Assembly: GCA_030674455.1 (NCBI GenBank)
Contig: JAUSGQ010000007.1
Span: 83,947 to 147,946, forward strand
Direction of reading: 5' to 3'
Source of the DNA: a bacterium
GTDB lineage: Bacteria > Patescibacteriota > Minisyncoccia > Phycocordibacterales > UBA2100
Length of the DNA: 64,000 nucleotides
In this document: in pieces, positions 24,970-64,000 of the stretch
How positions within the stretch are numbered: the first letter of the stretch is position 1
Layout: every line of letters starts with the position of its first letter
Notes under the pieces: model-generated
What the model saw: the letters and a program-made list of their open reading frames with translations, nothing else
What the model was told of the DNA's origin: nothing
The model's database searches: none
Program-made: the position numbers and the translations under genes

Positions 24970-27900
24970 ATGTATGCCACTATTCGATTATTACCATGCC
25001 TAAAAGCGAGCCTCCTTTTCATGCTTAGAAAATTCACCTTCGGAGGCATTGGCTTAGCTCTTCTCATAACTCCTTTATTTGCTAGTGCTGATACGACAAG
25101 CGATGCGACTGAATTATCGCGCTGGGAGGCGGTAGTAACTTGTCTAAAAATCAAAGTTGACAACCATGATTACGTTAATGCACTTTCTTGTTTAGGAGCT
25201 GGAACAGCCGCGAACACATTATTTTCTCCGTCTGTGAGTTCTCTCAAAGCTGGCGCGCTTGCCGCCGTAGCAACGACATTCACACAGTCGTCCGGCTCAA
25301 ACAGCGCCGAGCCGGCAACAGATGCGGAAAAGGAGGCGGAGATGCTTACCGATCTCCTTAGCTCCAAAATTGCGCCGGAACCGGTAACGAGGTCAAAAGT
25401 CGGCGCGTTCGCTTCAGAATCTGAGAAAGTAAAACAGCAGGTACAAGTCGCGAAGCATCGCGGACAGCTTATGAAACAGTTGGCTGAAGATAACCCCGAG
25501 GCCTTTCTTCGCAATGTTATGCCGGAGTCTCAGCGCTCCAAATTCTCAACCGAGGTTAAGAACGAAATTGAGCAAAAAGTGGCACTAACGGGGAAAGTGG
25601 AGGTCGTACACCTTGATGATTTCACAAACCATGAAAACTCAAAGTTTAATTATTTTCTTCAATCGGGAGGTTCCAGAATCTCGCTTAAGGTCGCAGGGAA
25701 CACGCCAGCAATGTTATCCGGCTCTTCAGTGCGCGCGAATGGATATAAACTCGGTCAAACTCTTGTTGTGGCTGCAAATTCAAATTCAGATGGGGATTCA
25801 GGCGGAGGAGGAGGTTTGACGGTACTTTCGCGGCCAGCTCTTGAATCTGCCAGAACGCAAAGAACTCTGGTAATTCTTGTAACTAGTCCTGGGCAGGCAA
25901 GTACGCCGACAAAAGAAGAAATGAGAAACCTTATATTCTCCGGAAATATTAATAGATATTACGAGGAGCAATCATACGGAAACGTACGATTTGAAGGAGA
26001 CGTGACTGATTGGATATCAGTGCCTGCTTCTTCATATCCTGTGTATGGGCCTATCGAACTCGACCAGTCGGATATAAGTAGCTATATTTCACGAAATCAC
26101 ATAGACTTGTCGCTCTATGATCGAGTCATGACCGTTGTAAACGGCTGGGCCGGTGGTTATGCATGGGCCGGCAAGGTGGACAGGTTAATCAACGGTGTAA
26201 CCTATCGCCTTTCCATAGGTTCGACGGGCTGGTCGGTTTCAGGATGGGCAGTAGAGAACATGTCCGGCTTTGAAAATGTATTCTCGCACGAAATGGGGCA
26301 CGAGCTTGGAGTCATGCATGCTAATTCACGGGAATGTAGCGGTCCATCTCTGGATAGAGATTGTCGTCACAATGAATATGGCAATGCCTTCGACATTATG
26401 GGATATGGAAATAATGCGGAGCATTTCAATGCATATTACAAAGATTCTCTAGGATGGCTTGATAATTCCTCGAAGGTTTCCATTACTCAAAGCGGAAGAT
26501 ATTCACTCTCGCCAATCGAGGCGCGGACAGGCGTGCGAGCTGGCATTATCACCAACCCTGCTACTCCTTCCGCGCTACCCTTGTATCTCGAATTTAGGCA
26601 ACCGATGGGATATGACAGTATATTGCCGCCCAACTCGGCAGGCCTGCAGTTAAATCAAGTTGTTACAAGAGGTCCATATGATTGGCTTCCATTTCCATGG
26701 CTCATTAACGCGAATTACGCGACCGATCCTCCATGTAATCCAGGTTTCCCATGTTTTTCACAGCCGTCGCTTATGCAGGGTAGCAATTTCTCATGGGCTG
26801 GTCGTGGCATCAGCATAGGTTCACTCGTTACAACACCAACATTGGCAACTTTTGATGTCGGGCTTACACAGCCATTGTGCGAACGAAACGGTTTATATGA
26901 TAGTAATAACAATCCATACTGGCAACAGCGTGTGGCTGCCGGCTCAAGCGCAACACTGCAAATTAATTTGACGAACGGCAACACTATCGCATGCGGTCCG
27001 AGTACAGTAGAATTTTCGACCTCTGTGACGAATTCGAGCGGATGGTCTATCTCGCAATATCCGAACGAGAGTAACGAAAGAGTTGTTATTGCGCCCGGCG
27101 AGACTGAGCGTGTGTATGTATCCCTTTCTCTGCCAGAAGATGCAGCACCGGGCAATAGAACTGTACGTATCACGGTGTCTGATTTGACCAACGGTCGTTC
27201 ATACAATATTGAGAGGACAATTACGGTCACGGCGAGACCAACGATAACCGAAATCTTTCCTTCAAGCGGAAGAGCGGCGACTGCCGTGACATTAAAAGGT
27301 ACGGGGTTCAATGAGTACCCAGGAAACACTATAAATATCAATGGAGGAAATCTCTCTGCCACTATTAGAAATGTTATTGCTAGAGCCGGAACTCTAACCT
27401 TCACCTTTCCTACAACCTTTGAGAGTTACGGCGGAGGAAGCGAGCCGCGACCTTCACAAGTTCCACCGCCATTGGGTCAGTACTCAATTGCTGTTTCTCG
27501 AAATGATGACGGCGGAACCGCAAGCGCAACGTTCACAGTAACGTCGGGTAATTCAGCTTTTCCCACCATCACATCAATTAATCCTTCGAGTACAACAGGA
27601 AGACCAACAAACTTTACGATTATTGGGACAAACTTCCAGTCTGGGTCAATGATTTACTACACCTATGCTGGCACTGGCAGTATTCCTTCTGGCACTTTTA
27701 CGCCGACGTTCAACCCCTCTAGACCTGATAGATTGACGTTCACTACGGCATCATTGCCTAAAGGAATCTACACTTTTTATGTTAAGAATCCTGACGGTCA
27801 AATTTCAGACACCGAGAATGTGACGGTTTTCTGTTACGACTTCAGAAGTATTCCATTGCAGGAGGGAAGTCAGGGAGCTGATGTTATTGCTCTCAAGCAG

Positions 27901-30711
27901 GCATTGCGTCTGGCTTTGAATAATTCATACGGCGAATCCGGTCGAGAGCCTCAGGATTATTATGGCACTGAAACTGTCGCTAACGTTAAGACATTCCAAT
28001 CAATACATCGTATTGAGCAGACTGGCATTGTTGAAGTTCAAACCTCAGCAAAATTGAACGATATCTTTGGATGCCAGCAGACAACCCCCACCTCTGACCC
28101 CATTATCTCTTCATTCACCCCCGAGTCGGTTGTGGCCGGAGCAACAACAAACATAGTAGTTAAAGGCCGCAACTTCCAGTTGGGAGCGGTTCTTGTCTAC
28201 ACTCTCGGTTCTGATACAGGCGAGTTGCCAACGACTTTTACGCCTGCGCCGATTCCGGGGCAAGAACAAAAATTGACCACCGGACGATATACCATTGACG
28301 CAGTAGGAAGTTATACCTTCCACGTCAAAAATCCCGACGGAAGAAGAAGCGAGGAAAAGATATTTGTTGTTACTCCGCGTGGGCAAGGAACTCAAACAAA
28401 CACTACTGCCGATAGTCCGCTGGCGTCCGCTCCCCAAATCCAATTTACCGTGAATGGTTCTGCGTATAGCGGTTCTAGATACGATGTATCTTTTGGAAGC
28501 ACAGTAAATATCGGGTGGAAGGTCACCAATCCATCCGGCGCAATATGTTCCGCCGCAGGAAACGGCATTGGAGATAATTTAGGTTCCGGCTCTATGCAAG
28601 CCAGCAATTCGTGGACAAACTGGACAACGCCGCCTCTTTACACCAGCACCACATACGGCATCAAATGCACCAACTCTCGAGGAACTACATACAAATACGT
28701 GTATGTGACGGTTGCGCCGCAGACAAACACATCGGGGGGCCCCGGTATCAGCATCACTGTTGACCCTGTTGACGCCAATACTAGCAACACATCTTACAGT
28801 GAAAGTTCTCCGCGAGTCAGCGTTGGGTTTGGAAAGAAGGTCAATATCGGTTGGGGCGTCACCAACGCCGGGGGCAGTACTTCGGGCATTACATGCTACG
28901 CAGCCGGAACAGGGCTAGGCGGAAGAAATGGTTATGAGAGCACTCCTTTAAGCGGCCTATGGACTACGCCGGCACTCTATACCGACACTACCTATGGAAT
29001 ACAATGCAAGAACTCGGCAGGCGCAATCACAAACAGATACATCTCTATTGATGTCGGCGAGCAGGCGAACACCGCCACTGCAATCACCCCGCCCGCCATC
29101 ACCATTAACGGTGATAGTAGTAACAATCAGCAACTTACATATTCCCCAGAAGTTGCATTTGGCGGCACTGCCAATATCAACTGGAGCGTTTCTCCGACGA
29201 GCGGCACCACTTGCTCCGCCGCAGGCAACGGCGTCTGGGGCAACACCGGTTCCGGTTCCGCAGAGTTAAGCGGCTCGTTCGCTACGCCGCCCCTCTACAC
29301 CAAAACCACGTACGGCATCAGATGCACTAACTCCGCCGGTACTACGTACAAGTACATAACCATCGGCATTCAAGAACAACAAAACACCACCACCACCGCC
29401 AGCACTCCCGCGCCAACTATCACCATTACGCCGCCTAGCGCGTCAATCGACTTTGGCGATAGCGCCACCTTCGGCTGGGATGTGACGCCACAAACTGCCG
29501 ATACCAAGTGCTATGCCGCGGGAACTGGTCTGGGCGGGGCAGAGGGATACCAAGAGATAGGCCTAACCGGAAGAAATTGGGTTACGCCGGCGCTCTACAC
29601 TTACACTACGTATGGAATAAAGTGTACAAACCCGGGCGGCACGACATACAAGTACGTGAACGTTTCTGTCGCCCCACAGCAGAGTACGACTTGCACCGAA
29701 GTCCCACAAACTCCGCTACCATGCGCCGACTATGCCGGTTCGTACGGAGTTCCTGCAGGATACACAGTCGGCAACGGCTCGTGGACAAAGAACAGCTGCA
29801 CCGGCAATCCAACCTACACTGGCGGGTGTTCGGCTCCCGCTCCAACCACACAGTCCTGCACCGAAGTTCCACAAACCCCACTGCCATGCGCCGACTACGC
29901 CGGCTCATACGGAGTCCCATCCGGATACACAGTCGGCAACGGTTCATGGACGAAAAATAGCTGCACAGGCAATCCAACTTATACCGGCGGCTGTTCTGCG
30001 CCAGCTCCAACGCAATCTTGCACCGAGGTCGCTCAAACTCCTCTACCGTGCGCCGACTACGCCGGCTCATACGGAGTCCCATCCGGATACACAGTCGGCA
30101 ACGGTTCATGGACGAAAAATAGCTGCACAGGCAATCCCACATACACGGGTGGTTGCTCCGCTCCCTCTGTCCCGACAGTCCGGCTCTCACAAAATTCGAG
30201 CAGTGGTACATCGGTCACTGTCACCTGGAGTTCCGACAATGCCGATTCATGCCGCCTTCAATACAATCTAAACGGAGGAGCCTGGACTGATTGGACATCG
30301 GGCGGTTCAAGCGGTTCAGTGAGCGGAGATTTGACTTCAGGAACGTGGAAAGCCAGAGCCATATGCACCGGCCCGGGCGGTACGACGACGAGTAGCACGA
30401 TAACCCACACTGTGGCAATCAGTTCTTCGCCCTTGAGCCAGACGGCGAGCGCCGCTGGCGCATTTCCAGAAGGAGAGGATGCGTTTATCTACACATGGAA
30501 CAATGACCTTCAGCTTAACTCGCGGTACGCGGCAGACATCAAGGCATTGCAGACTGCACTCGCGAAAGAAGGGGTGTACATCGGAGAAGTAACTGGAGGA
30601 TTCCACATGCAAACGTATTACGGGGTTAAAAGATTCCAAGAGAAGTACGGAATTGACTCCACCGGCTTTGTCGGCCCGCAAACGAGGGCAAGACTCAACG
30701 AGCTGTACTGA
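24970..30711 (+). CDS. giant secreted multidomain protein: metzincin-type zinc metallopeptidase domain, Ig-like/repeat domains, two peptidoglycan-binding domains
   Basis: A signal peptide is present (start possibly at MLRKFTFGGIGLALLITPLFASA, 25021). HEMGHELGVMH equals the HExxHxxGxxH metzincin motif. There are 4-5 ~95-aa repeats ending ...YGIKCTNSxGTTYKYVxV, and 3 tandem ~55-aa Cys repeats (CTEVPQTPLPCADYAGSYGVP...). PG_binding_1-like segments are present internally and at the C-terminus (YAADIKALQTALAKEGVY...GVKRFQEKYGIDSTGFVGPQTRARL). Confidence 0.7.
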   Translation: MYATIRLLPCLKASLLFMLRKFTFGGIGLALLITPLFASADTTSDATELSRWEAVVTCLKIKVDNHDYVNALSCLGAGTAANTLFSPSVSSLKAGALAAVATTFTQSSGSNSAEPATDAEKEAEMLTDLLSSKIAPEPVTRSKVGAFASESEKVKQQVQVAKHRGQLMKQLAEDNPEAFLRNVMPESQRSKFSTEVKNEIEQKVALTGKVEVVHLDDFTNHENSKFNYFLQSGGSRISLKVAGNTPAMLSGSSVRANGYKLGQTLVVAANSNSDGDSGGGGGLTVLSRPALESARTQRTLVILVTSPGQASTPTKEEMRNLIFSGNINRYYEEQSYGNVRFEGDVTDWISVPASSYPVYGPIELDQSDISSYISRNHIDLSLYDRVMTVVNGWAGGYAWAGKVDRLINGVTYRLSIGSTGWSVSGWAVENMSGFENVFSHEMGHELGVMHANSRECSGPSLDRDCRHNEYGNAFDIMGYGNNAEHFNAYYKDSLGWLDNSSKVSITQSGRYSLSPIEARTGVRAGIITNPATPSALPLYLEFRQPMGYDSILPPNSAGLQLNQVVTRGPYDWLPFPWLINANYATDPPCNPGFPCFSQPSLMQGSNFSWAGRGISIGSLVTTPTLATFDVGLTQPLCERNGLYDSNNNPYWQQRVAAGSSATLQINLTNGNTIACGPSTVEFSTSVTNSSGWSISQYPNESNERVVIAPGETERVYVSLSLPEDAAPGNRTVRITVSDLTNGRSYNIERTITVTARPTITEIFPSSGRAATAVTLKGTGFNEYPGNTININGGNLSATIRNVIARAGTLTFTFPTTFESYGGGSEPRPSQVPPPLGQYSIAVSRNDDGGTASATFTVTSGNSAFPTITSINPSSTTGRPTNFTIIGTNFQSGSMIYYTYAGTGSIPSGTFTPTFNPSRPDRLTFTTASLPKGIYTFYVKNPDGQISDTENVTVFCYDFRSIPLQEGSQGADVIALKQALRLALNNSYGESGREPQDYYGTETVANVKTFQSIHRIEQTGIVEVQTSAKLNDIFGCQQTTPTSDPIISSFTPESVVAGATTNIVVKGRNFQLGAVLVYTLGSDTGELPTTFTPAPIPGQEQKLTTGRYTIDAVGSYTFHVKNPDGRRSEEKIFVVTPRGQGTQTNTTADSPLASAPQIQFTVNGSAYSGSRYDVSFGSTVNIGWKVTNPSGAICSAAGNGIGDNLGSGSMQASNSWTNWTTPPLYTSTTYGIKCTNSRGTTYKYVYVTVAPQTNTSGGPGISITVDPVDANTSNTSYSESSPRVSVGFGKKVNIGWGVTNAGGSTSGITCYAAGTGLGGRNGYESTPLSGLWTTPALYTDTTYGIQCKNSAGAITNRYISIDVGEQANTATAITPPAITINGDSSNNQQLTYSPEVAFGGTANINWSVSPTSGTTCSAAGNGVWGNTGSGSAELSGSFATPPLYTKTTYGIRCTNSAGTTYKYITIGIQEQQNTTTTASTPAPTITITPPSASIDFGDSATFGWDVTPQTADTKCYAAGTGLGGAEGYQEIGLTGRNWVTPALYTYTTYGIKCTNPGGTTYKYVNVSVAPQQSTTCTEVPQTPLPCADYAGSYGVPAGYTVGNGSWTKNSCTGNPTYTGGCSAPAPTTQSCTEVPQTPLPCADYAGSYGVPSGYTVGNGSWTKNSCTGNPTYTGGCSAPAPTQSCTEVAQTPLPCADYAGSYGVPSGYTVGNGSWTKNSCTGNPTYTGGCSAPSVPTVRLSQNSSSGTSVTVTWSSDNADSCRLQYNLNGGAWTDWTSGGSSGSVSGDLTSGTWKARAICTGPGGTTTSSTITHTVAISSSPLSQTASAAGAFPEGEDAFIYTWNNDLQLNSRYAADIKALQTALAKEGVYIGEVTGGFHMQTYYGVKRFQEKYGIDSTGFVGPQTRARLNELY
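29692..30180 (+). repeat. three tandem in-frame coding repeats (165/162/162 nt), copies 2 and 3 near-identical at DNA level
   Basis: An ~86-nt stretch (29889-29974 versus 30051-30136) is identical between copies 2 and 3. Copy 1 starts at 29692. Confidence 0.8.
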
Positions 30712-54436: not shown

Positions 54437-57400
54437 TCACTCCCCTTCCAAAACAAAATTTACAAGTCGGCTGGGTACATAAATCGTGCGTAATATCTTC
54501 TTGCCCTCCACGCGCGAGCCAACTGCCGCGAGCGCCGCATCTTCAACAGTCTTTTTATCCGAATCAGTCGGCACTTGAACTTCTCCGCGTGTTCTGCCGT
54601 TTATCTGAATTGCGATAGTAACATTCTCGTCTCTCAGCAAAGCAGGATCAAACACCGGCCACTTTTCAAGATGAATCGATGATTTATTTCCGGCTTCATG
54701 CCACAACTCTTCTGTTATATGCGGAGCGAACGGTGATAAAAGCTTCAGAAATACTCCAAATTGTTCCTGGCCGATTGCGCCTTCTTTTTCTATCGCATTC
54801 AAAAGTATCATCAAAGAGCTGATAGCCGTATTGAATTTGAGCAGAGCTATATCTTCTCCAATTTTTTTAACAGTCCTGTGCAACACCGGTTCTATGTTCG
54901 CATTTACTGTCAACTGTGGACTGTCAACTGTAGACTGTCCCATCCGCCACACTCGTTCAAGAAATCTGCGGATTCCTACGACGCCGTCCGGATTCCACGG
55001 GTAGCTTGAAACCTCGTTGTAAGGGCCGATGAACGCAAGATACATGCGCACCGTGTCGGCTCCCAAGCGCTCCACTACCAGGTCGGGGTCAATGACATTC
55101 CCGCGCGACTTGCTCATCTTCTGCCCGTCGGGCCCCAGTATCAAACTCCTGTTCATTCGCCGCTTGTATGGTTCCGATTCCCCCACCAGCCCCAAGTCAA
55201 ATAGCGCTTTGTGCCAGAAGCGCGAATAGAGAAGGTGCATGGTCGTATGTTCCGCTCCTCCCGAATAAAGATTTACGGGCATCCAATTCGCTTGCTTCTC
55301 TTTGCTAGCGAATTCCTTCTTGTTGTTGGGGTCTGTGTAGCGCAGGAAATACCATGACGAATCGACGAACGTATCCAGCGTGTCTGTCTCGCGCTCCGCC
55401 TCGCCTGCGCACTTTGGGCACTTTGCGGCAACCCATTTCTTCGCCTTGGCGAGCGGCGACTTCCCGCTCCCTTCGGGTAGATAATCTTTGACCTCGGGCA
55501 GCTCCACGGGCAAGTCCACGTCTCCGACCGGCTGTGAGCCGCACTTTCCGCAATGGATAATCGGTATTGGCACTCCCCAATATCTCTGCCTCGATACTAT
55601 CCAATCGCGAAGCTTGTAAGTGGTTTTCTTAACGCCCAATTCTTCCGTAATGGCTTCCCTTCCTTTCTGCGATGTCAGGCCACTGAACCTGCCGGAATCT
55701 ATCATCAGCCCTTCTCCCATGTAGGGAAGTTCGCCGCCGTTTTTGTCCGCGTTGTTCCGCGTTTGGGCCGATAGGGTTTGTATCGGCACCTGTAGACGGT
55801 CTGCGTTAATCTGCGCCGATATGACTTCCCTTATGGGAAGACCATATCGGGATGCAAACTCAAAGTCGCGCTCGTCGTGCGCCGGCACTGCCATAATCGC
55901 ACCCGTGCCGTAATGGCCGAGTACGTAATCGGCAATATAAACAGGAATCCTTTCCCGTGTCGCGGGATTGATTGCATCCACACCCTCGAGCCTCACTCCT
56001 GTTTTTTCTTTATTCGTCTGGCGGTCCATATCTGATTTCTTTTCAGTTAGGGCGATATATCGCCCTATTTCCTTCTCATTGCGGAGAAGCCGCTGATGCG
56101 CGAGGGCGCGTTTGACCCAAGGATGTTCAGGTGCAAGCACGACGTACGTTGCACCAAAGAGCGTGTCTGGGCGGGTCGTAAAGACAGTAATGCGCGGCAT
56201 AAGCTGTGCTAATACGAGCGGCTCTTGCGCGCCCAGGAAATGCTCCTCATTGGCTTTTCCTTCTGCTATCTGCGCATCAAGAATGTCGGCTAGGTGTGCA
56301 ATGTACGCCCCGCGCTTGCCTTTTTCCGCCGCATCAGAAAGTACGAGTCTTAAACCGGCAAGCGTCTTGAGTTTGTCGTACTTGATATCCCACGAAAAGT
56401 CTTTCCAATACGTTCTCGGTTCCGCATTCGCAAATGCCGAATCTATTGCCGGAGCTACGAGAACCAACCCGCCTACCGGACGATTTATTTTTTGCAGCAA
56501 TTTCATCGCCACAACTGCTCCCAGGCTATGGCCGATGATGACGGTGTTCTCATCTATGTGGCAGTGGTCGAACACGTATTTGACTTGCTCGTATTCCTTC
56601 GGCTCGCTCGTATTTGGAAGTTCAGGTGCTTGGACGGCATACCCCTTGCTCTCGAGCTCTCGCTTGAGCCACGAAAAAAATGCGCCGGTAGGGCTTCCTT
56701 TGTAGCCGTGCAGAAGCAAAAAATTCGGCTGCGGAGCATTTTTATTCTCAAATTCAATCGGAAAACTTATTTCGGCCCCATTGCTGCGCCCTATCCAATT
56801 CCTTTGCGACTCCTTGATTTGCTCCGGCCAATCTAAGCCGGATAGATCGTCTATCAATCTATCCGCGTAATCCGTTATCTTGATATTCCACTGGAGCATC
56901 TTCTTCTGCACCACTTCGCTGTCACAGCGTTCGCATTTACCGTCCGTAACTTGTTCATTGGCAAGAACCGTTTTGTCTTTTGGACACCAATTAACCGCAG
57001 TCTCTTTTTGATACGCCAACCCTTTCTTAAAAAGCTGCAGGAACAACCATTGCGTCCATTTGTAATAATCAGGGTTGCACGTGATTACTTCGCGCGACCA
57101 GTCAAACGATGTCCCCATAGAGGCAATTTGCTTTTTCATATATGCAATATTCCCTTCCGTCCACGTGCGCGGATTGAGCTTGTTCTTTATTGCCGCATTT
57201 TCCGCAGGCAGGCCGAAGGCGTCAAAACCAATCGGATACATCACGTTCTTGCCTTGCATGCGAAGCGCGCGCGCTAAAATATCCGGCACGGCAAATGCGT
57301 ACCAATGCCCGGCGTGAAGATTTCCGGAAGGATACGGGAATTCTACGAGCAGGTAGAAGTTCTCTTTCTTGCCCGCCGTAGCTTTACTGTGTCCGTCCGT

Positions 57401-57523
57401 AGCCTTGAGCGAAGGAGGAGCGGAGGCGGGACCGGGCGCCTTGTCCGGCGTTGTGTAAATCTTGCTTGTCTTCCAATATTTCTGCCACTTGCGCTCAATG
57501 GCCTTATGGTCGTATTTCTTCAT
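54437..57523 (-). CDS. leuS: leucine--tRNA ligase with an inserted alpha/beta-hydrolase (Ser_hydrolase/YdeN-RBBP9-like) domain preceding the CP1 editing domain
   Basis: LeuRS motifs are FPYPSGNLHAGH (HIGH), NWIGRS, TTRPDTLFGATY plus GTGAIMAVPAHDERDFEFA (CP1 editing), and KMSKS. Between NWIGRSNGAEISFPIEF and ITVFTTRPDT lies a ~195-aa insert with LLLHGYKGSP (oxyanion HG), GHSLG (nucleophile elbow), and candidate Asp (LVLSDAAE) and His (AYIAHL) residues. Confidence 0.85.
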   Translation of the reverse strand: MKKYDHKAIERKWQKYWKTSKIYTTPDKAPGPASAPPSLKATDGHSKATAGKKENFYLLVEFPYPSGNLHAGHWYAFAVPDILARALRMQGKNVMYPIGFDAFGLPAENAAIKNKLNPRTWTEGNIAYMKKQIASMGTSFDWSREVITCNPDYYKWTQWLFLQLFKKGLAYQKETAVNWCPKDKTVLANEQVTDGKCERCDSEVVQKKMLQWNIKITDYADRLIDDLSGLDWPEQIKESQRNWIGRSNGAEISFPIEFENKNAPQPNFLLLHGYKGSPTGAFFSWLKRELESKGYAVQAPELPNTSEPKEYEQVKYVFDHCHIDENTVIIGHSLGAVVAMKLLQKINRPVGGLVLVAPAIDSAFANAEPRTYWKDFSWDIKYDKLKTLAGLRLVLSDAAEKGKRGAYIAHLADILDAQIAEGKANEEHFLGAQEPLVLAQLMPRITVFTTRPDTLFGATYVVLAPEHPWVKRALAHQRLLRNEKEIGRYIALTEKKSDMDRQTNKEKTGVRLEGVDAINPATRERIPVYIADYVLGHYGTGAIMAVPAHDERDFEFASRYGLPIREVISAQINADRLQVPIQTLSAQTRNNADKNGGELPYMGEGLMIDSGRFSGLTSQKGREAITEELGVKKTTYKLRDWIVSRQRYWGVPIPIIHCGKCGSQPVGDVDLPVELPEVKDYLPEGSGKSPLAKAKKWVAAKCPKCAGEAERETDTLDTFVDSSWYFLRYTDPNNKKEFASKEKQANWMPVNLYSGGAEHTTMHLLYSRFWHKALFDLGLVGESEPYKRRMNRSLILGPDGQKMSKSRGNVIDPDLVVERLGADTVRMYLAFIGPYNEVSSYPWNPDGVVGIRRFLERVWRMGQSTVDSPQLTVNANIEPVLHRTVKKIGEDIALLKFNTAISSLMILLNAIEKEGAIGQEQFGVFLKLLSPFAPHITEELWHEAGNKSSIHLEKWPVFDPALLRDENVTIAIQINGRTRGEVQVPTDSDKKTVEDAALAAVGSRVEGKKILRTIYVPSRLVNFVLEGE

Positions 57524-60501: not shown

Positions 60502-61977
60502 TTAGGCCATTAACAGGAAAATTGACAAAGGCATTTCAAGAATTGGTTGTTCGATTTTCCAATCTTCTTTTGTGACTAGAATGCCGAAACTATTTTGCTT
60601 TCCTTGTGTTTCTAGAAACGAGCGAACTGAGTCACGATGATGGTTATCTGTTTGATTTTTATAAACAATTTCAATTGGTATCACGCGACTGCCAACTCGC
60701 ACTACAAAATCAATCTCCTGCTTACCGCTTGGCTCACGATAATACGAGACATCAGAAACGCCGGGGAATAATCGAATAACATTATGAGCAAGTGTTTCCG
60801 CAATTCTGCCGCGTTCCTCTCCCTCAAGAGAAGTAACAACTTTTGTTATTCCCTGCATAAGCACGAGGTCAGCCGCGTATAACTTCGCATGAGTAGAACG
60901 TAAACGCACCGGCTTGCCTGTAAAACGCTCAACTTTTCGGATTAACTCTGTTTGTAGGAGAAGAGGCAATGCTTCAGTGAGCGTAACACGAGTCGTCTGA
61001 ATGAGAGCCGCGAGTTTCTCAAGATTCATTTCGTCGCCCGTGCGCGCAAACGCGTAACGTAAAAATTGATGGAAAATCTCCGGCCGTCTGATTTCTTTCA
61101 CTAGACGCAAATCTTCTAATGTTACGCGTTCAACATACTGTTGGTCGATAAATACGGAACGCTCAACGGCCGTACCCATCAGCCACAATTGGGGAAAGCC
61201 ACCTTTCTGAGCATATTCATCTGCATAAAGATTCCATTGCCTTATTGTGCTTGGTTTTATTTCTTCCTGTAAGCGTCGATTCAATCGCATTACTGATGAA
61301 ACTTCGCCAATGTCCAAAACATCTTCTGCTAACTTGCTCAAAAAGACTCTGTGTTCGAGGTAATGATATCGAACGAACTCACGGAAAGTAAACGGTGGCA
61401 GAGAAATATCAACCAGTCTGCCAAGCAAACTTTCTAGAGATTTCCTGAAAATAGTATGGGATGCCGAACCTGAAATAATAAAACGAATCGGATATCGCAA
61501 ATCAACGTAGCGCTTGATGTATAATTCCCAGCGCGGTAAACGTTGAACCTCGTCAAGAAAACAGTAAAGCGTATCGGGCGATGTGCGCAACGCAGTGCCG
61601 GCAACTTGCGCCCACTGCGCGAGCAATGCCTCAAACAAGGTGCCTTGGTCTTTTTGTGGCAACTGCTGAATCAACGGGTCGTCAAGCGAGAAAAATAGGA
61701 TTTTATTGACCGGGATTTTCTTTTCTTCAATCAAACAGCGGATAACCTGATTTATAATGGTTGTTTTGCCGACACGGCGCGGACCGTTAATCAGCAAAGC
61801 GAGTCCGTGAGTCGCCTCCGTATGGCGCATGGCCTGAATAAACGCATCCCGTTTGAAATCGGGAACTCCGGGTATTGAAAACGACTTTGTTTTCCACCAC
61901 GGATTGTACGCAAGCAGGAATTGCCGTAAGTTATGTATACCTAGGGCTTCAAGGTATTTTTGCGGGTTTTTAGACAT
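60502..61977 (-). CDS. AAA+ ATPase of the DUF4143 (AAA_14-like) family
   Basis: Walker A is LLINGPRRVGKTTI and Walker B is LYCFLDEVQ. A C-terminal DUF4143-like region is present. Confidence 0.6.
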   Translation of the reverse strand: MSKNPQKYLEALGIHNLRQFLLAYNPWWKTKSFSIPGVPDFKRDAFIQAMRHTEATHGLALLINGPRRVGKTTIINQVIRCLIEEKKIPVNKILFFSLDDPLIQQLPQKDQGTLFEALLAQWAQVAGTALRTSPDTLYCFLDEVQRLPRWELYIKRYVDLRYPIRFIISGSASHTIFRKSLESLLGRLVDISLPPFTFREFVRYHYLEHRVFLSKLAEDVLDIGEVSSVMRLNRRLQEEIKPSTIRQWNLYADEYAQKGGFPQLWLMGTAVERSVFIDQQYVERVTLEDLRLVKEIRRPEIFHQFLRYAFARTGDEMNLEKLAALIQTTRVTLTEALPLLLQTELIRKVERFTGKPVRLRSTHAKLYAADLVLMQGITKVVTSLEGEERGRIAETLAHNVIRLFPGVSDVSYYREPSGKQEIDFVVRVGSRVIPIEIVYKNQTDNHHRDSVRSFLETQGKQNSFGILVTKEDWKIEQPILEMPLSIFLLMA

Positions 61978-62231: not shown

Positions 62232-62978
62232 TTAGTAGTCTGAACGTTTGCGGCGCCAGAACCAGATGCCCCCGCCAAGAACCACAAGGATAACGAGCGT
62301 CACAAGCGATGCGATAGCCGGACTGCCGGTACCGAACGTGAGGATGTTCTCAAACGGCGACAACGCCACTGCTGCGGCTTGCGCTGGTACTCCACTGTCT
62401 GTGGATGCGGCTTCCGTGGCCGTTGATTCTGTTACGGTGCCGGCAGTCACTGTCTTTGAAGGCGTACTGGGCTCTGTAACCGTCTGTGTCGGCGCAGGAG
62501 CCGTGCTTGCGGCAGAAATAGTCACTGCTACTGAACCTTGACTACCCGCGACTGCATTTTGATTGTTTGCATCCAGAATAAGCGATTCGGAGGTCGCTGA
62601 AATTGTTGCCGTGCCGTTTTTCTTCGCGCGAAAAGTTGCGGTGCCAAGAACAGTTGCTGAAGTAACGCCGCCCGGATATCCGCCGGTCTTCGCCATTACG
62701 CCGTTTGTATTGTCCTCCGTGTCATACCCAGATTGGGAGAGCGGCATCCACTTCGATGCAAACGAGAAGCCGGTGAGCGTTAACACTGCAGGATCAAACG
62801 AAAGATTCGCTCGCACGGTATATGCTTTCCCAGAGGTTGGATTCACGCCGACGGTCACACTGAACGTATTCCCAGCTACCGTCGCGACGGTCGCTGGCGC
62901 GAGCGTCACCGAGGACGCCATAGCCGCAGCCGGGAGCAAAAGCGCAGAAAGTGTAATCGCAGAAAGTATTTTTTTCAT
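62232..62978 (-). CDS. cell-surface protein with cohesin-like domain and C-terminal TM anchor
   Basis: It has a signal peptide and a beta-sandwich cohesin-like segment (TFSVTVGVNPTSGKAYTVRANLSFDPAVLTLTGFSF...TATFRAKKNGTATISA). A Thr/Ala/Ser-rich linker precedes the C-terminal TM helix plus RRKR. Confidence 0.5.
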   Translation of the reverse strand: MKKILSAITLSALLLPAAAMASSVTLAPATVATVAGNTFSVTVGVNPTSGKAYTVRANLSFDPAVLTLTGFSFASKWMPLSQSGYDTEDNTNGVMAKTGGYPGGVTSATVLGTATFRAKKNGTATISATSESLILDANNQNAVAGSQGSVAVTISAASTAPAPTQTVTEPSTPSKTVTAGTVTESTATEAASTDSGVPAQAAAVALSPFENILTFGTGSPAIASLVTLVILVVLGGGIWFWRRKRSDY

Positions 62979-62987
62979 AGTCTAGGG

Positions 62988-64000
62988 TTATGCAGTCCAG
63001 TGAACCATTAATAAGTTAAAGTCGAACACGTCGACTGTGCCGTTGCCGTCGAAGTCGGCAACGACTGTCGCTCCCTTCTCGCCCCAATGCACCATCAGGG
63101 AATTGAAGTCGAGGACGTCGATATGATTGTCGTTATTGGTGTCATACACCTTCTGTGCTGCGGTGAGCGCTGTGACTGTTGGCGTGACAGTTGGAGTGGT
63201 GTTCGTAGTCCCACCACCTCCTCCTCCGCCACCGCTCGGCGCCGGAGCCGGAGCCGGAGCCGGATTAGCCGCCAACGAACCGAAACTCGTGAAGTGGTAG
63301 GTCACAATCTTGGTATTAGTGCCGTCGCTGATCGAGCATTCGCTATTCGCCGGCGGATTACCTGGGGTTGCATAGGGGCTGGCACACACATTAGTAATCC
63401 GCACCCAGGTATCCGAGCCGGACGGCCGATATCCTACAGCCCCTGTAACGCCCGTCAGCACTAGCGTGACCGGTTTATCGAAGGTTAACGTTCCGTCGGG
63501 TGACCCGACTGAAACGACCGTGCTCCCAACACTATATCCGGCGGGAGCACTCCCGCCGCTTGGCGTACCGGAAACCGGCGGGGTTACCTTGCCATCCCAT
63601 CCGGACGGACCGGTAATTTTAGTCCCGTCGGGGAAGCTCGCGCTCACGCTGCTCAATGCGGAGTTGGTCAATACGATTGGCGTACCAGAAACACCTGAGT
63701 TGAGCGTGACCGCACGCCCGCTCAATCCGGACGATAGGTTCATTACGGTCGTGTCGTTCAAGACAACATTCGTCGCTCCTGCGGGCAAGCTAACCGACCC
63801 CGCGCCAGCAGAGGTGACCGAAACATCTGCGCCGTTGCCAAATACCGTATCACTAGGCACGGCTGTAGTGAAATTCAATTCTGTGTGTTCCCCATTCGCA
63901 AACACGGCCGTTGCACCGGTATCAACAGAGTCAATAAAGAACTTCAGAATTGACCCGGTTCTATTATTGTCTGGGTCAGTAACGAACAGTAGGTCGGGAT
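62988..64000 (-). CDS. surface protein with C-terminal dockerin-like tandem Ca-binding repeats (5-prime end beyond window)
   Basis: The C-terminus (YDTNNDNHIDVLDFNSLMVHWGE and DFDGNGTVDVFDFNLLMVHWTA) matches the dockerin duplicated EF-hand-like repeat (DxNxDGxIDxxD...L). A poly-Gly/Pro-Ala linker precedes it. The ORF is open to the window edge. Confidence 0.6.
   Translation of the reverse strand, partial: PDLLFVTDPDNNRTGSILKFFIDSVDTGATAVFANGEHTELNFTTAVPSDTVFGNGADVSVTSAGAGSVSLPAGATNVVLNDTTVMNLSSGLSGRAVTLNSGVSGTPIVLTNSALSSVSASFPDGTKITGPSGWDGKVTPPVSGTPSGGSAPAGYSVGSTVVSVGSPDGTLTFDKPVTLVLTGVTGAVGYRPSGSDTWVRITNVCASPYATPGNPPANSECSISDGTNTKIVTYHFTSFGSLAANPAPAPAPAPSGGGGGGGGTTNTTPTVTPTVTALTAAQKVYDTNNDNHIDVLDFNSLMVHWGEKGATVVADFDGNGTVDVFDFNLLMVHWTA

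Follow-up and report, generated by a model that had tools for sequence, protein, structure and literature searches.

How the ultra-small, mostly uncultivated Patescibacteria (the candidate phyla radiation, CPR) build their surfaces and attach to hosts is largely unknown, and two neighbouring genes at the end of a 64,000-nucleotide stretch of patescibacterial DNA (hereafter the window) raise the question of whether they encode the two halves of one surface tether. Both lie on the minus strand. Gene A encodes a secreted protein that ends in a dockerin, and gene B a membrane-anchored protein with a single predicted cohesin. In our judgment they very likely constitute a dedicated two-gene dockerin-cohesin surface tether and are probably transcribed together. 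The features on which the argument turns are the following, with their basis in brackets (AF2, AlphaFold2; pLDDT, predicted local distance difference test).

62988-64000, minus strand: gene A, 3' part, a dockerin-bearing secreted protein (residues 74-409 of the 409-residue protein P0043)
63864-63998, minus strand: C-terminal half of an N-terminal beta-sandwich of about 85 residues, the 'PHxFYG' domain (P0043 residues 31-118; AF2, pLDDT >90)
63270-63848, minus strand: central beta-rich region of A, residues ~124-316, ending in an invariant TKIVTYHFT[ST]FG motif (AF2, alignment)
63168-63269, minus strand: flexible linker of A, residues 317-350, Pro/Ala, Gly8 and Thr-rich (sequence)
62991-63167, minus strand: dockerin module, residues 351-409, two loop-helix repeats (sequence, profile, AF2)
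63108-63143 and 63021-63056, minus strand: the Ca-loops of the dockerin (sequence pattern)
62979-62987, minus strand: intergenic spacer CCCTAGACT, 9 nucleotides from the gene A stop to the gene B ATG (sequence)
62232-62978, minus strand: gene B, the single-cohesin membrane anchor, 248 residues (= P0001)
62916-62978, minus strand: signal peptide of B, residues 1-21, MKKILSAITLSALLLPAAAMA followed by SS (AMA/SS boundary; sequence)
62499-62915, minus strand: cohesin-fold beta-sandwich, residues 22-160 (AF2, Foldseek, alignment)
62349-62498, minus strand: disordered Thr/Ser/Pro/Ala-rich spacer, residues 161-210 (pLDDT <50 at 171-211)
62325-62345, minus strand: juxtamembrane motif ILTFGTG, residues 212-218 (kept in a subset of the family)
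62235-62321, minus strand: C-terminal transmembrane helix with a basic tail, WRRKRSDY (AF2 helix 220-247)

Gene A reads past the end of the window, with its last 336 codons inside (62991-63998; stop codon 62988-62990). The full upstream gene, which the first-pass annotation of this DNA had sought, was recovered by a database search as P0043 ('MAG: hypothetical protein Q7S01_01685 [bacterium]'; MAG, metagenome-assembled genome). It is 409 residues long and identical in the window overlap; therefore only 73 N-terminal residues, including the signal peptide with which P0043 starts, lie beyond the window. The C-terminus of the protein reads ANPAPAPAPAPSGGGGGGGGTTNTTPTVTPTVTALTAAQKVY-DTNNDNHIDVLDFNSLMVHW-GEKGATVVA-DFDGNGTVDVFDFNLLMVHW-TA, followed by the stop. 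The two genes had been described as adjacent with a gap of 10 nucleotides; they are indeed adjacent, and the gap measures 9 nucleotides. A search of the coding strand revealed no terminator-like site inside the pair or immediately beyond it, so a single transcript for A and B is likely. The cohesin label on protein B is known already, since P0001, which is identical to the gene B product, carries the name 'cohesin domain-containing protein' from NCBI automatic annotation.

Is B a cohesin? In an AF2 model computed with the family alignment, residues 22-160 are all-beta with pLDDT above 90, preceded by a low-pLDDT helix at signal-peptide residues 3-13. When residues 22-160 were compared with the PDB by Foldseek, 40 of the top 41 matches were cohesins. 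The best E-value was that of 6kgc_A (4.6e-9) and the best template-modelling score (TM-score) that of 2vo8 (0.81 at a root-mean-square deviation of 2.5 Å), while the non-cellulosomal cohesin of Archaeoglobus fulgidus (2xdh) scored 0.74. Identity to the matched structures is 9-19%. The Pfam Cohesin model (PF00963) matches 14 of 28 homologues of B (best E 2.9e-11). Together, the homologues and the predicted fold support B as a divergent cohesin. The first-pass annotation had described a signal peptide, a cohesin-like beta-sandwich and a C-terminal membrane anchor, an architecture on which sequence, AF2 and Foldseek agree.

The family to which B belongs is large and uniform. At 50% identity, 559 clusters reach E<=1e-30, and nearly all of the 150 clusters listed are 220-290 residues long and match nearly the full length of the profile. 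Each family member has a single cohesin, and by a simple rule 62 of 76 family open reading frames (ORFs) have the transmembrane helix and basic tail. A family-specific invariant stretch, W77..SQSGYD..DN.NG..KTGGYPGG104, holds the invariant residues W77, L80, Q82, G84-Y85-D86, D89, G93, K97 and G100-Y-P-G-G104. By the strand order of the model, these residues and Y53/T54 would map to strands 3, 5 and 6 and to the 4-5 loop, elements that in canonical cohesins belong to the dockerin-binding 8-3-6-5 sheet.

The juxtamembrane motif has the general form (I/L)T(F/L)GT(G/D/N) and is kept between members that are 30-40% identical, within a region otherwise of low complexity. By a strict pattern it occurs in 16 of 76 family ORFs, and in roughly 30 when looser variants are allowed; it is missing from many. 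A sortase signal was considered for this site and rejected: TIGR01167 scores 14.8 against a cut-off of 15.9, (I/L)T(F/L)GTG is not LPXTG, and many members lack the motif.

The other half of the pair is the C-terminus of A. It consists of DTNNDNHIDVLD-FNSLMVHW and DFDGNGTVDVFD-FNLLMVHW, a near-identical tandem duplication of about 20 residues each, so that the earlier description of two dockerin-type repeats after a Gly/Pro-Ala linker is confirmed by reading the sequence. Both loops have the predicted Ca ligands D1/N3/D5/D9/D12, with Asp at position 12, where EF-hands usually carry Glu. A search of all ORFs of at least 60 codons in six frames over the 64 kb with the Ca-loop pattern D.[DN].[DN]..[IVL][DNST]..D returned two matches. 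Because both fall in gene A, the pattern is not a chance match, and the window holds a single dockerin ORF. In the AF2 model of P0043, helices follow the loops at residues 368-376 and 397-405 (pLDDT ~90). The module is compact, as the loop starts are 30 residues apart and the model has no long helix between the repeat helices. AF2 confidence is lowest in the linker ahead of it, at residues 331-350, falling below a pLDDT of 50 at 339-347.

Homologues place this module among dockerins. Four of them score above the Dockerin_1 (PF00404) cut-off of 22.9 bits (P0056, 31.5; P0107, 32.9; P0109, 29.6; P0072, 32.1 bits). All 24 of 24 aligned modules match Dockerin_1 at E<=0.01, versus 16 of 24 for EF-hand_1. 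The top three PDB matches of the module profile are the dockerin-bearing chains 2y3n_B (E 1e-5), 2jnk/2ozn and 4fl4; 5nrk also ranks high, with calmodulins interleaved from E ~1e-4. The module is kept across 53 aligned sequences, with strong conservation between lineages of the putative recognition residues DxxDFNxLMxxW. Thus, family profile and fold evidence support the C-terminus of A as a dockerin.

Do the two belong together? Screening the species genomes of GTDB for the GYPGG cohesin motif yielded 74 loci (L005-L078), and a dockerin hidden Markov model (HMM) was run on 78 fetched loci and the window, 1.16 Mb in all, covering 10 kb on either side of the cohesin genes. Nearly all loci are from Patescibacteria (Kaiser-, Jorgensen-, Wolfe-, Nealson-, Yanofsky-, Azam- and Berkelbacteria, Kazan and Paceibacteria); the closest in the GTDB scan is a Kaiserbacteria MAG at 60% identity. 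The 1.16 Mb contain 76 dockerin modules, of which about 70 end a same-strand ORF that stops 2-100 nucleotides before the cohesin gene. At the few loci that have no adjacent dockerin, mostly the contig ends at the cohesin gene. In nearly all of the 76 ORFs only 0-8 residues separate the dockerin from the C-terminus, and in those ORFs whose sequences were read a Gly-rich linker precedes the module. The pairing also holds from the other side, as four of four loci picked through the dockerin protein (L079, L081, L082, L083) have a cohesin-like gene with a transmembrane anchor directly downstream, and in one of these the two genes overlap by 4 nucleotides.

In two loci the genes are genuinely fused into a single dockerin-then-cohesin ORF (L071, 8558-10543; L078, 8876-10690), whereas an apparent fusion in L047 proved to be an artefact of masked N bases. 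The two fusions have a linker of ~12-20 residues and no second signal peptide, and either binding inside a single chain or head-to-tail polymerisation is conceivable.

Dockerin and cohesin also change type together. In three of three cases, a dockerin whose loop positions 10-11 are Lys-Tyr in both repeats (KY/KY) is followed by a divergent Cys-type cohesin, which hhalign relates to the family with a probability of 96.9%. These cohesins (L079, 7235-7960; L081, 7207-7698; L014, 13708-14481) are shorter, lack GYPGG and have no Pfam match. A dockerin with hydrophobic residues at positions 10-11, by contrast, precedes a GYPGG-type cohesin in 55 of 55 classified cases. In L014 both pair types occur 4 kb apart, each dockerin beside its own cohesin type. 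The cargo bodies in L079 and L081 are 55-58% identical to protein A, yet plug and socket are both switched. The KY-dockerin and Cys-cohesin are a candidate orthogonal specificity pair. That A and B are cognate partners, as had been proposed at the outset, is supported by the adjacency in about 70 loci, the two fusions and this co-switching.

Several observations weigh against reading the pair as a cohesin and its dockerin. The first-pass annotation had proposed PF00963 and PF00404 as the check on both identities, and on the window proteins themselves this check fails: B has no Cohesin match even at E<=10, and A reaches 16.8 bits with Dockerin_1 in context and 21.4 bits as an isolated module, below the cut-off. 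EF-hand_1 and EF-hand_6 score similar to or above Dockerin_1 on the same module. A phmmer search of both window proteins against PDB sequences returned noise and calmodulins only, and the profile of the 28-member cohesin family found no solved cohesin among PDB sequences, which is why recognition of the cohesin needed a comparison of folds. Furthermore, the 55 of 55 cases of hydrophobic-type dockerins beside GYPGG-type cohesins are not independent of cohesin type, since L005-L078 were ascertained through the GYPGG motif, nor are related genomes independent samples. Taken alone, the HMM failure of the window proteins would wrongly dismiss the claim, because the homologues and the folds support both identities, which we uphold.

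The scores leave room for a reading in which the C-terminal module of A is an ordinary EF-hand-type module that binds calcium or stabilises the protein, does not bind B, and is encoded next to it because both are envelope components, as of a surface layer (S-layer) or cell wall. Besides the Pfam scores and the calmodulins among the profile matches, UniRef calls one homologue an EF-hand domain protein. We nevertheless regard this as quite improbable, as both loops end in Asp, the module sits at the extreme C-terminus after a Gly-rich linker beside a cohesin-fold gene across loci, its positions 10-11 switch with the cohesin type, and in L071 and L078 it is fused to the cohesin. A different question is whether B serves A alone. 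B could be a general docking hub, with many dockerin proteins encoded around the genome and A as one client; the dockerin is joined to very different bodies, of 67-1988 residues, and the conserved recognition residues would allow promiscuous binding. However, nearly every dockerin within 10 kb of the 78 cohesin genes is the immediate upstream neighbour (~70 of 76), the window encodes one dockerin only, and loci picked through the dockerin protein all had their own cohesin downstream. From one locus to another, differing bodies fill the one upstream slot instead of being encoded by extra genes, so a hub appears unlikely.

Cohesin and dockerin are the hallmark modules of cellulosomes, and the best structural matches of B are cellulosomal cohesins, which might suggest a part in a cellulosome-like polysaccharide-degrading complex. 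Scans of A and the homologues detected no glycoside hydrolase, carbohydrate-binding module (CBM) or other enzyme domain, B has one cohesin and is not a multi-cohesin scaffoldin, the scanned genes of the window are housekeeping genes or encode other surface proteins, and the hosts are Patescibacteria with small genomes. We consider such a complex hardly credible. Accordingly, of the first-pass view that the pair is a minimal cellulosome-like unit for docking proteins at the surface, surface docking is supported, whereas the cellulosome-like unit gives way to what behaves as a one-to-one operon with a single cohesin and a cargo that has no enzyme domain. Because there are neither enzymes nor a multi-cohesin scaffoldin, the pair is better read as a tether for structural or adhesive surface proteins.

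How would such a tether work? Protein A would be exported through its signal peptide as a small N-terminal beta-sandwich and a central beta-rich region, joined by a flexible Pro/Ala-Gly-Thr linker to a compact C-terminal dockerin, in which two loop-helix repeats with Asp at loop position 12 would bind Ca2+. Protein B would likewise be exported but retained in the cytoplasmic membrane by its C-terminal helix and RRKR tail, and its disordered Thr/Pro/Ala spacer of ~50 residues would hold the single cohesin off the membrane. Ca2+-dependent binding of the dockerin to this cohesin would then fix A at the cell surface and, by extension, whatever the N-terminal domains of A hold. Adhesion or display in an episymbiotic Patescibacterium is the likely role; as for the cell-associated lifestyle put forward at first, we infer it from the affiliation with Patescibacteria.

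For the N-terminal PHxFYG domain of A, Foldseek weakly matched transthyretin-like domains, the C-terminal domain of PapC, the NTE domain of SusC, and SlaB. Foldseek of the whole P0043 model gave no match at E<1e-3, with weak transthyretin-like, ZU5 and GAIN matches only, and a profile of the central domain found nothing in PDB or Pfam.

The domain that precedes linker and dockerin (~63270-63650, P0043 residues ~190-316) carries the motif TKIVTYHFTSFG at about 63264-63299 on the minus strand and ends in an invariant HF[TS] tripeptide, which is HFT in 33 of 33 distinct homologues. Large dockerin proteins have the variant DLVVWTKHF[TS]KF, and the domain is also found ahead of PG_binding_1 or FN3 plus transmembrane modules in other proteins. 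ZU5 and GAIN domains self-cleave at HFS-like sites. Conceivably, the HF[TS] motif before the linker might be a similar autoproteolytic site that makes the link non-covalent.

The occupants of the upstream slot across loci give a broader view of the cargo. Their N-domains are of the PHxFYG type, of a type with 'SEVTGTLSTG' and a CHB_HEX_C-like domain, of the FN3 type and others, and the bodies joined to the dockerin include CHB_HEX_C/Fn3_assoc, FN3 and giant repeat proteins. A giant gene on the same strand, coding for about 500-2200 residues, ends <=200 nucleotides upstream of 27 of 43 small dockerin (adaptor) genes, compared with none of 10 large dockerin proteins (Fisher p 2.7e-4). These giant upstream genes were found at the following places.

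L002/L003, 2777-8776: giant upstream gene
L004, 3544-9294: giant upstream gene
L079, 1-5959: giant upstream gene
Many of L005-L078: giant upstream genes

Among those giants for which precomputed domain hits were available, YDG, MBG_2, Big_5 and Beta_helix domains occur. Long stretches of homology connect the large dockerin proteins with the giants that have no dockerin, one of them at 66% identity over 349 residues. Giants with a 'GWNL..GYGYW' C-terminal domain pair with PHxFYG adaptors, and those with a 'TFDNGWKWTFHVTVP...RFYSAQSS' C-terminal domain pair with the other adaptor type; crossed cases between giant C-domain and adaptor N-domain types number zero. This covariation suggests that the adaptor N-domain captures the C-terminus of the giant. 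The pattern could arise because the adaptor connects giant and anchor, or simply from co-inheritance. In L002/L003, the closest relatives on long contigs (70% identity), a giant-type protein of 1999 residues precedes the pair, and in the genome of the window the corresponding position lies beyond base 64000. Tentatively, the pair may thus be the membrane-proximal end of a Patescibacteria-wide three-part display system made of a giant adhesin-like protein, a dockerin adaptor and a transmembrane-anchored cohesin. If this is true, the system would be a candidate host-attachment device of episymbionts.

The genes that follow B in the window code for an AAA_14/DUF4143 ATPase, YchF, a DUF5671 membrane protein and leucyl-tRNA synthetase (LeuRS). 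YchF and LeuRS also follow the pair in L079, and LeuRS does so in L004, which suggests a vertically inherited chromosomal position. The ATPase gene (60502-61977, minus strand) stands between the cohesin gene and ychF; it may be an inserted gene, because the related L079 has folD there. LeuRS itself (1028 residues; 54437-57523, minus strand) contains an alpha/beta-hydrolase segment (Ser_hydrolase, E 1.9e-10) at residues ~266-377, where it separates the catalytic core from the editing domain. Further away, an ORF of 1913 residues (24970-30711, plus strand) has two terminal PG_binding_1 domains (E 6e-21) and an NPCBM_assoc domain but no dockerin, and its product appears from the sequence to be another giant surface protein, bound to the wall by a different anchor. 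An Rfam scan of the whole 64-kb window gave no family, including transfer and ribosomal RNA, at the gathering score.

The analysis defines a large, well-delimited family of single-cohesin anchors, each encoded directly after its own dockerin partner and often after a giant adhesin-like gene, and the pair is a concrete candidate for surface display or attachment in Patescibacteria. With it, the cohesin-dockerin principle takes in a dedicated 'split surface protein' of two genes that is anchored by a transmembrane helix, and protein engineering could make use of the plug and socket types that switch together as new orthogonal binding pairs. No description of a dockerin-cohesin pair in Patescibacteria was found in the literature searched. 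The essential dockerin protein of Southlakia, SEML1_0315 (PMC10633639), was considered as a possible instance, but no cohesin gene adjoins its own and it belongs to a different system; in the accessible part of the supplements to that paper, no cohesin or dockerin terms were found.

How does the pair compare with systems already described? Many bacteria and archaea have cohesin and dockerin modules outside cellulosomes (Peer et al. 2009 and studies of A. fulgidus, as cited in PMC9012536). In A. fulgidus (2xdh) and in anaerobic methanotrophic (ANME) archaea, as here, the modules occur in organisms that do not degrade cellulose, and they have been proposed to act in surface assembly or in contact between cells (PMC9012536). 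A. fulgidus lacks a multi-cohesin scaffoldin, whereas some ANME proteins carry up to five cohesins, and the archaeal proteins often combine cohesin and dockerin in one chain or have them attached to substrate-binding proteins. The gene order of a dockerin followed by a transmembrane-anchored cohesin, which is phylum-wide in Patescibacteria, is not reported for them.

Another non-cellulosomal case is the toxin complex of Clostridium perfringens (GH84/GH33; 2ozn/2jnk, 2vo8, 2jh2, 2w1n), where, as proposed for A and B, cohesin and dockerin form a Ca-dependent one-to-one plug and socket between two secreted proteins. Its structures are also among the matches, 2vo8 having the best TM-score with B and 2jnk being the second-best match of the dockerin. 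However, the partners joined in this complex are soluble enzymes, and nothing anchors them in a membrane. In Clostridium thermocellum, OlpA/OlpC (3ul4, 4dh2; Foldseek ranks 12, 15 and 23 for B) resemble what is proposed for B in that a single cell-bound cohesin binds the dockerin of one secreted protein, but they are held by an S-layer homology (SLH) anchor and their clients are cellulosomal enzymes encoded elsewhere, whereas here the client is the operon partner. The SlaA/SlaB S-layer of Sulfolobus (8qox) is alike in its working only, as a C-terminally membrane-anchored stalk holds a large outer protein. SlaB is a weak fold match to the N-terminal domain of A (rank 5, E 1.3e-2), for which no homology is claimed, and the system has no cohesin or dockerin modules.

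The nearest functional analogue we take to be ScaE of Ruminococcus flavefaciens, a single-cohesin anchor that binds the dockerin of the adhesin CttA, whose gene immediately precedes scaE in the sca cluster. With the CttA/ScaB X-dockerins (2zf9, 4iu2, 4iu3), ScaE is a single-cohesin protein fixed to the envelope, and, as proposed for B, it takes the C-terminal dockerin of an adhesion protein that is not an enzyme. Foldseek matches of B include the ScaE cohesin and its complex (ranks 30-38), at an identity of only 9-15%. ScaE is sortase-linked to the wall via LPXTG, whereas B has a transmembrane helix and basic tail, and ScaE also receives the whole cellulosome through ScaB. The dockerin of A is shorter than the X-dockerins of CttA and ScaB, with 30 residues between its loop starts and no long inter-repeat helix in the AF2 model. 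What sets the patescibacterial pair apart is its combination of a transmembrane anchor in place of sortase or SLH attachment, a compact dockerin, a divergent GYPGG cohesin subfamily, a one-to-one operon and phylum-wide conservation.

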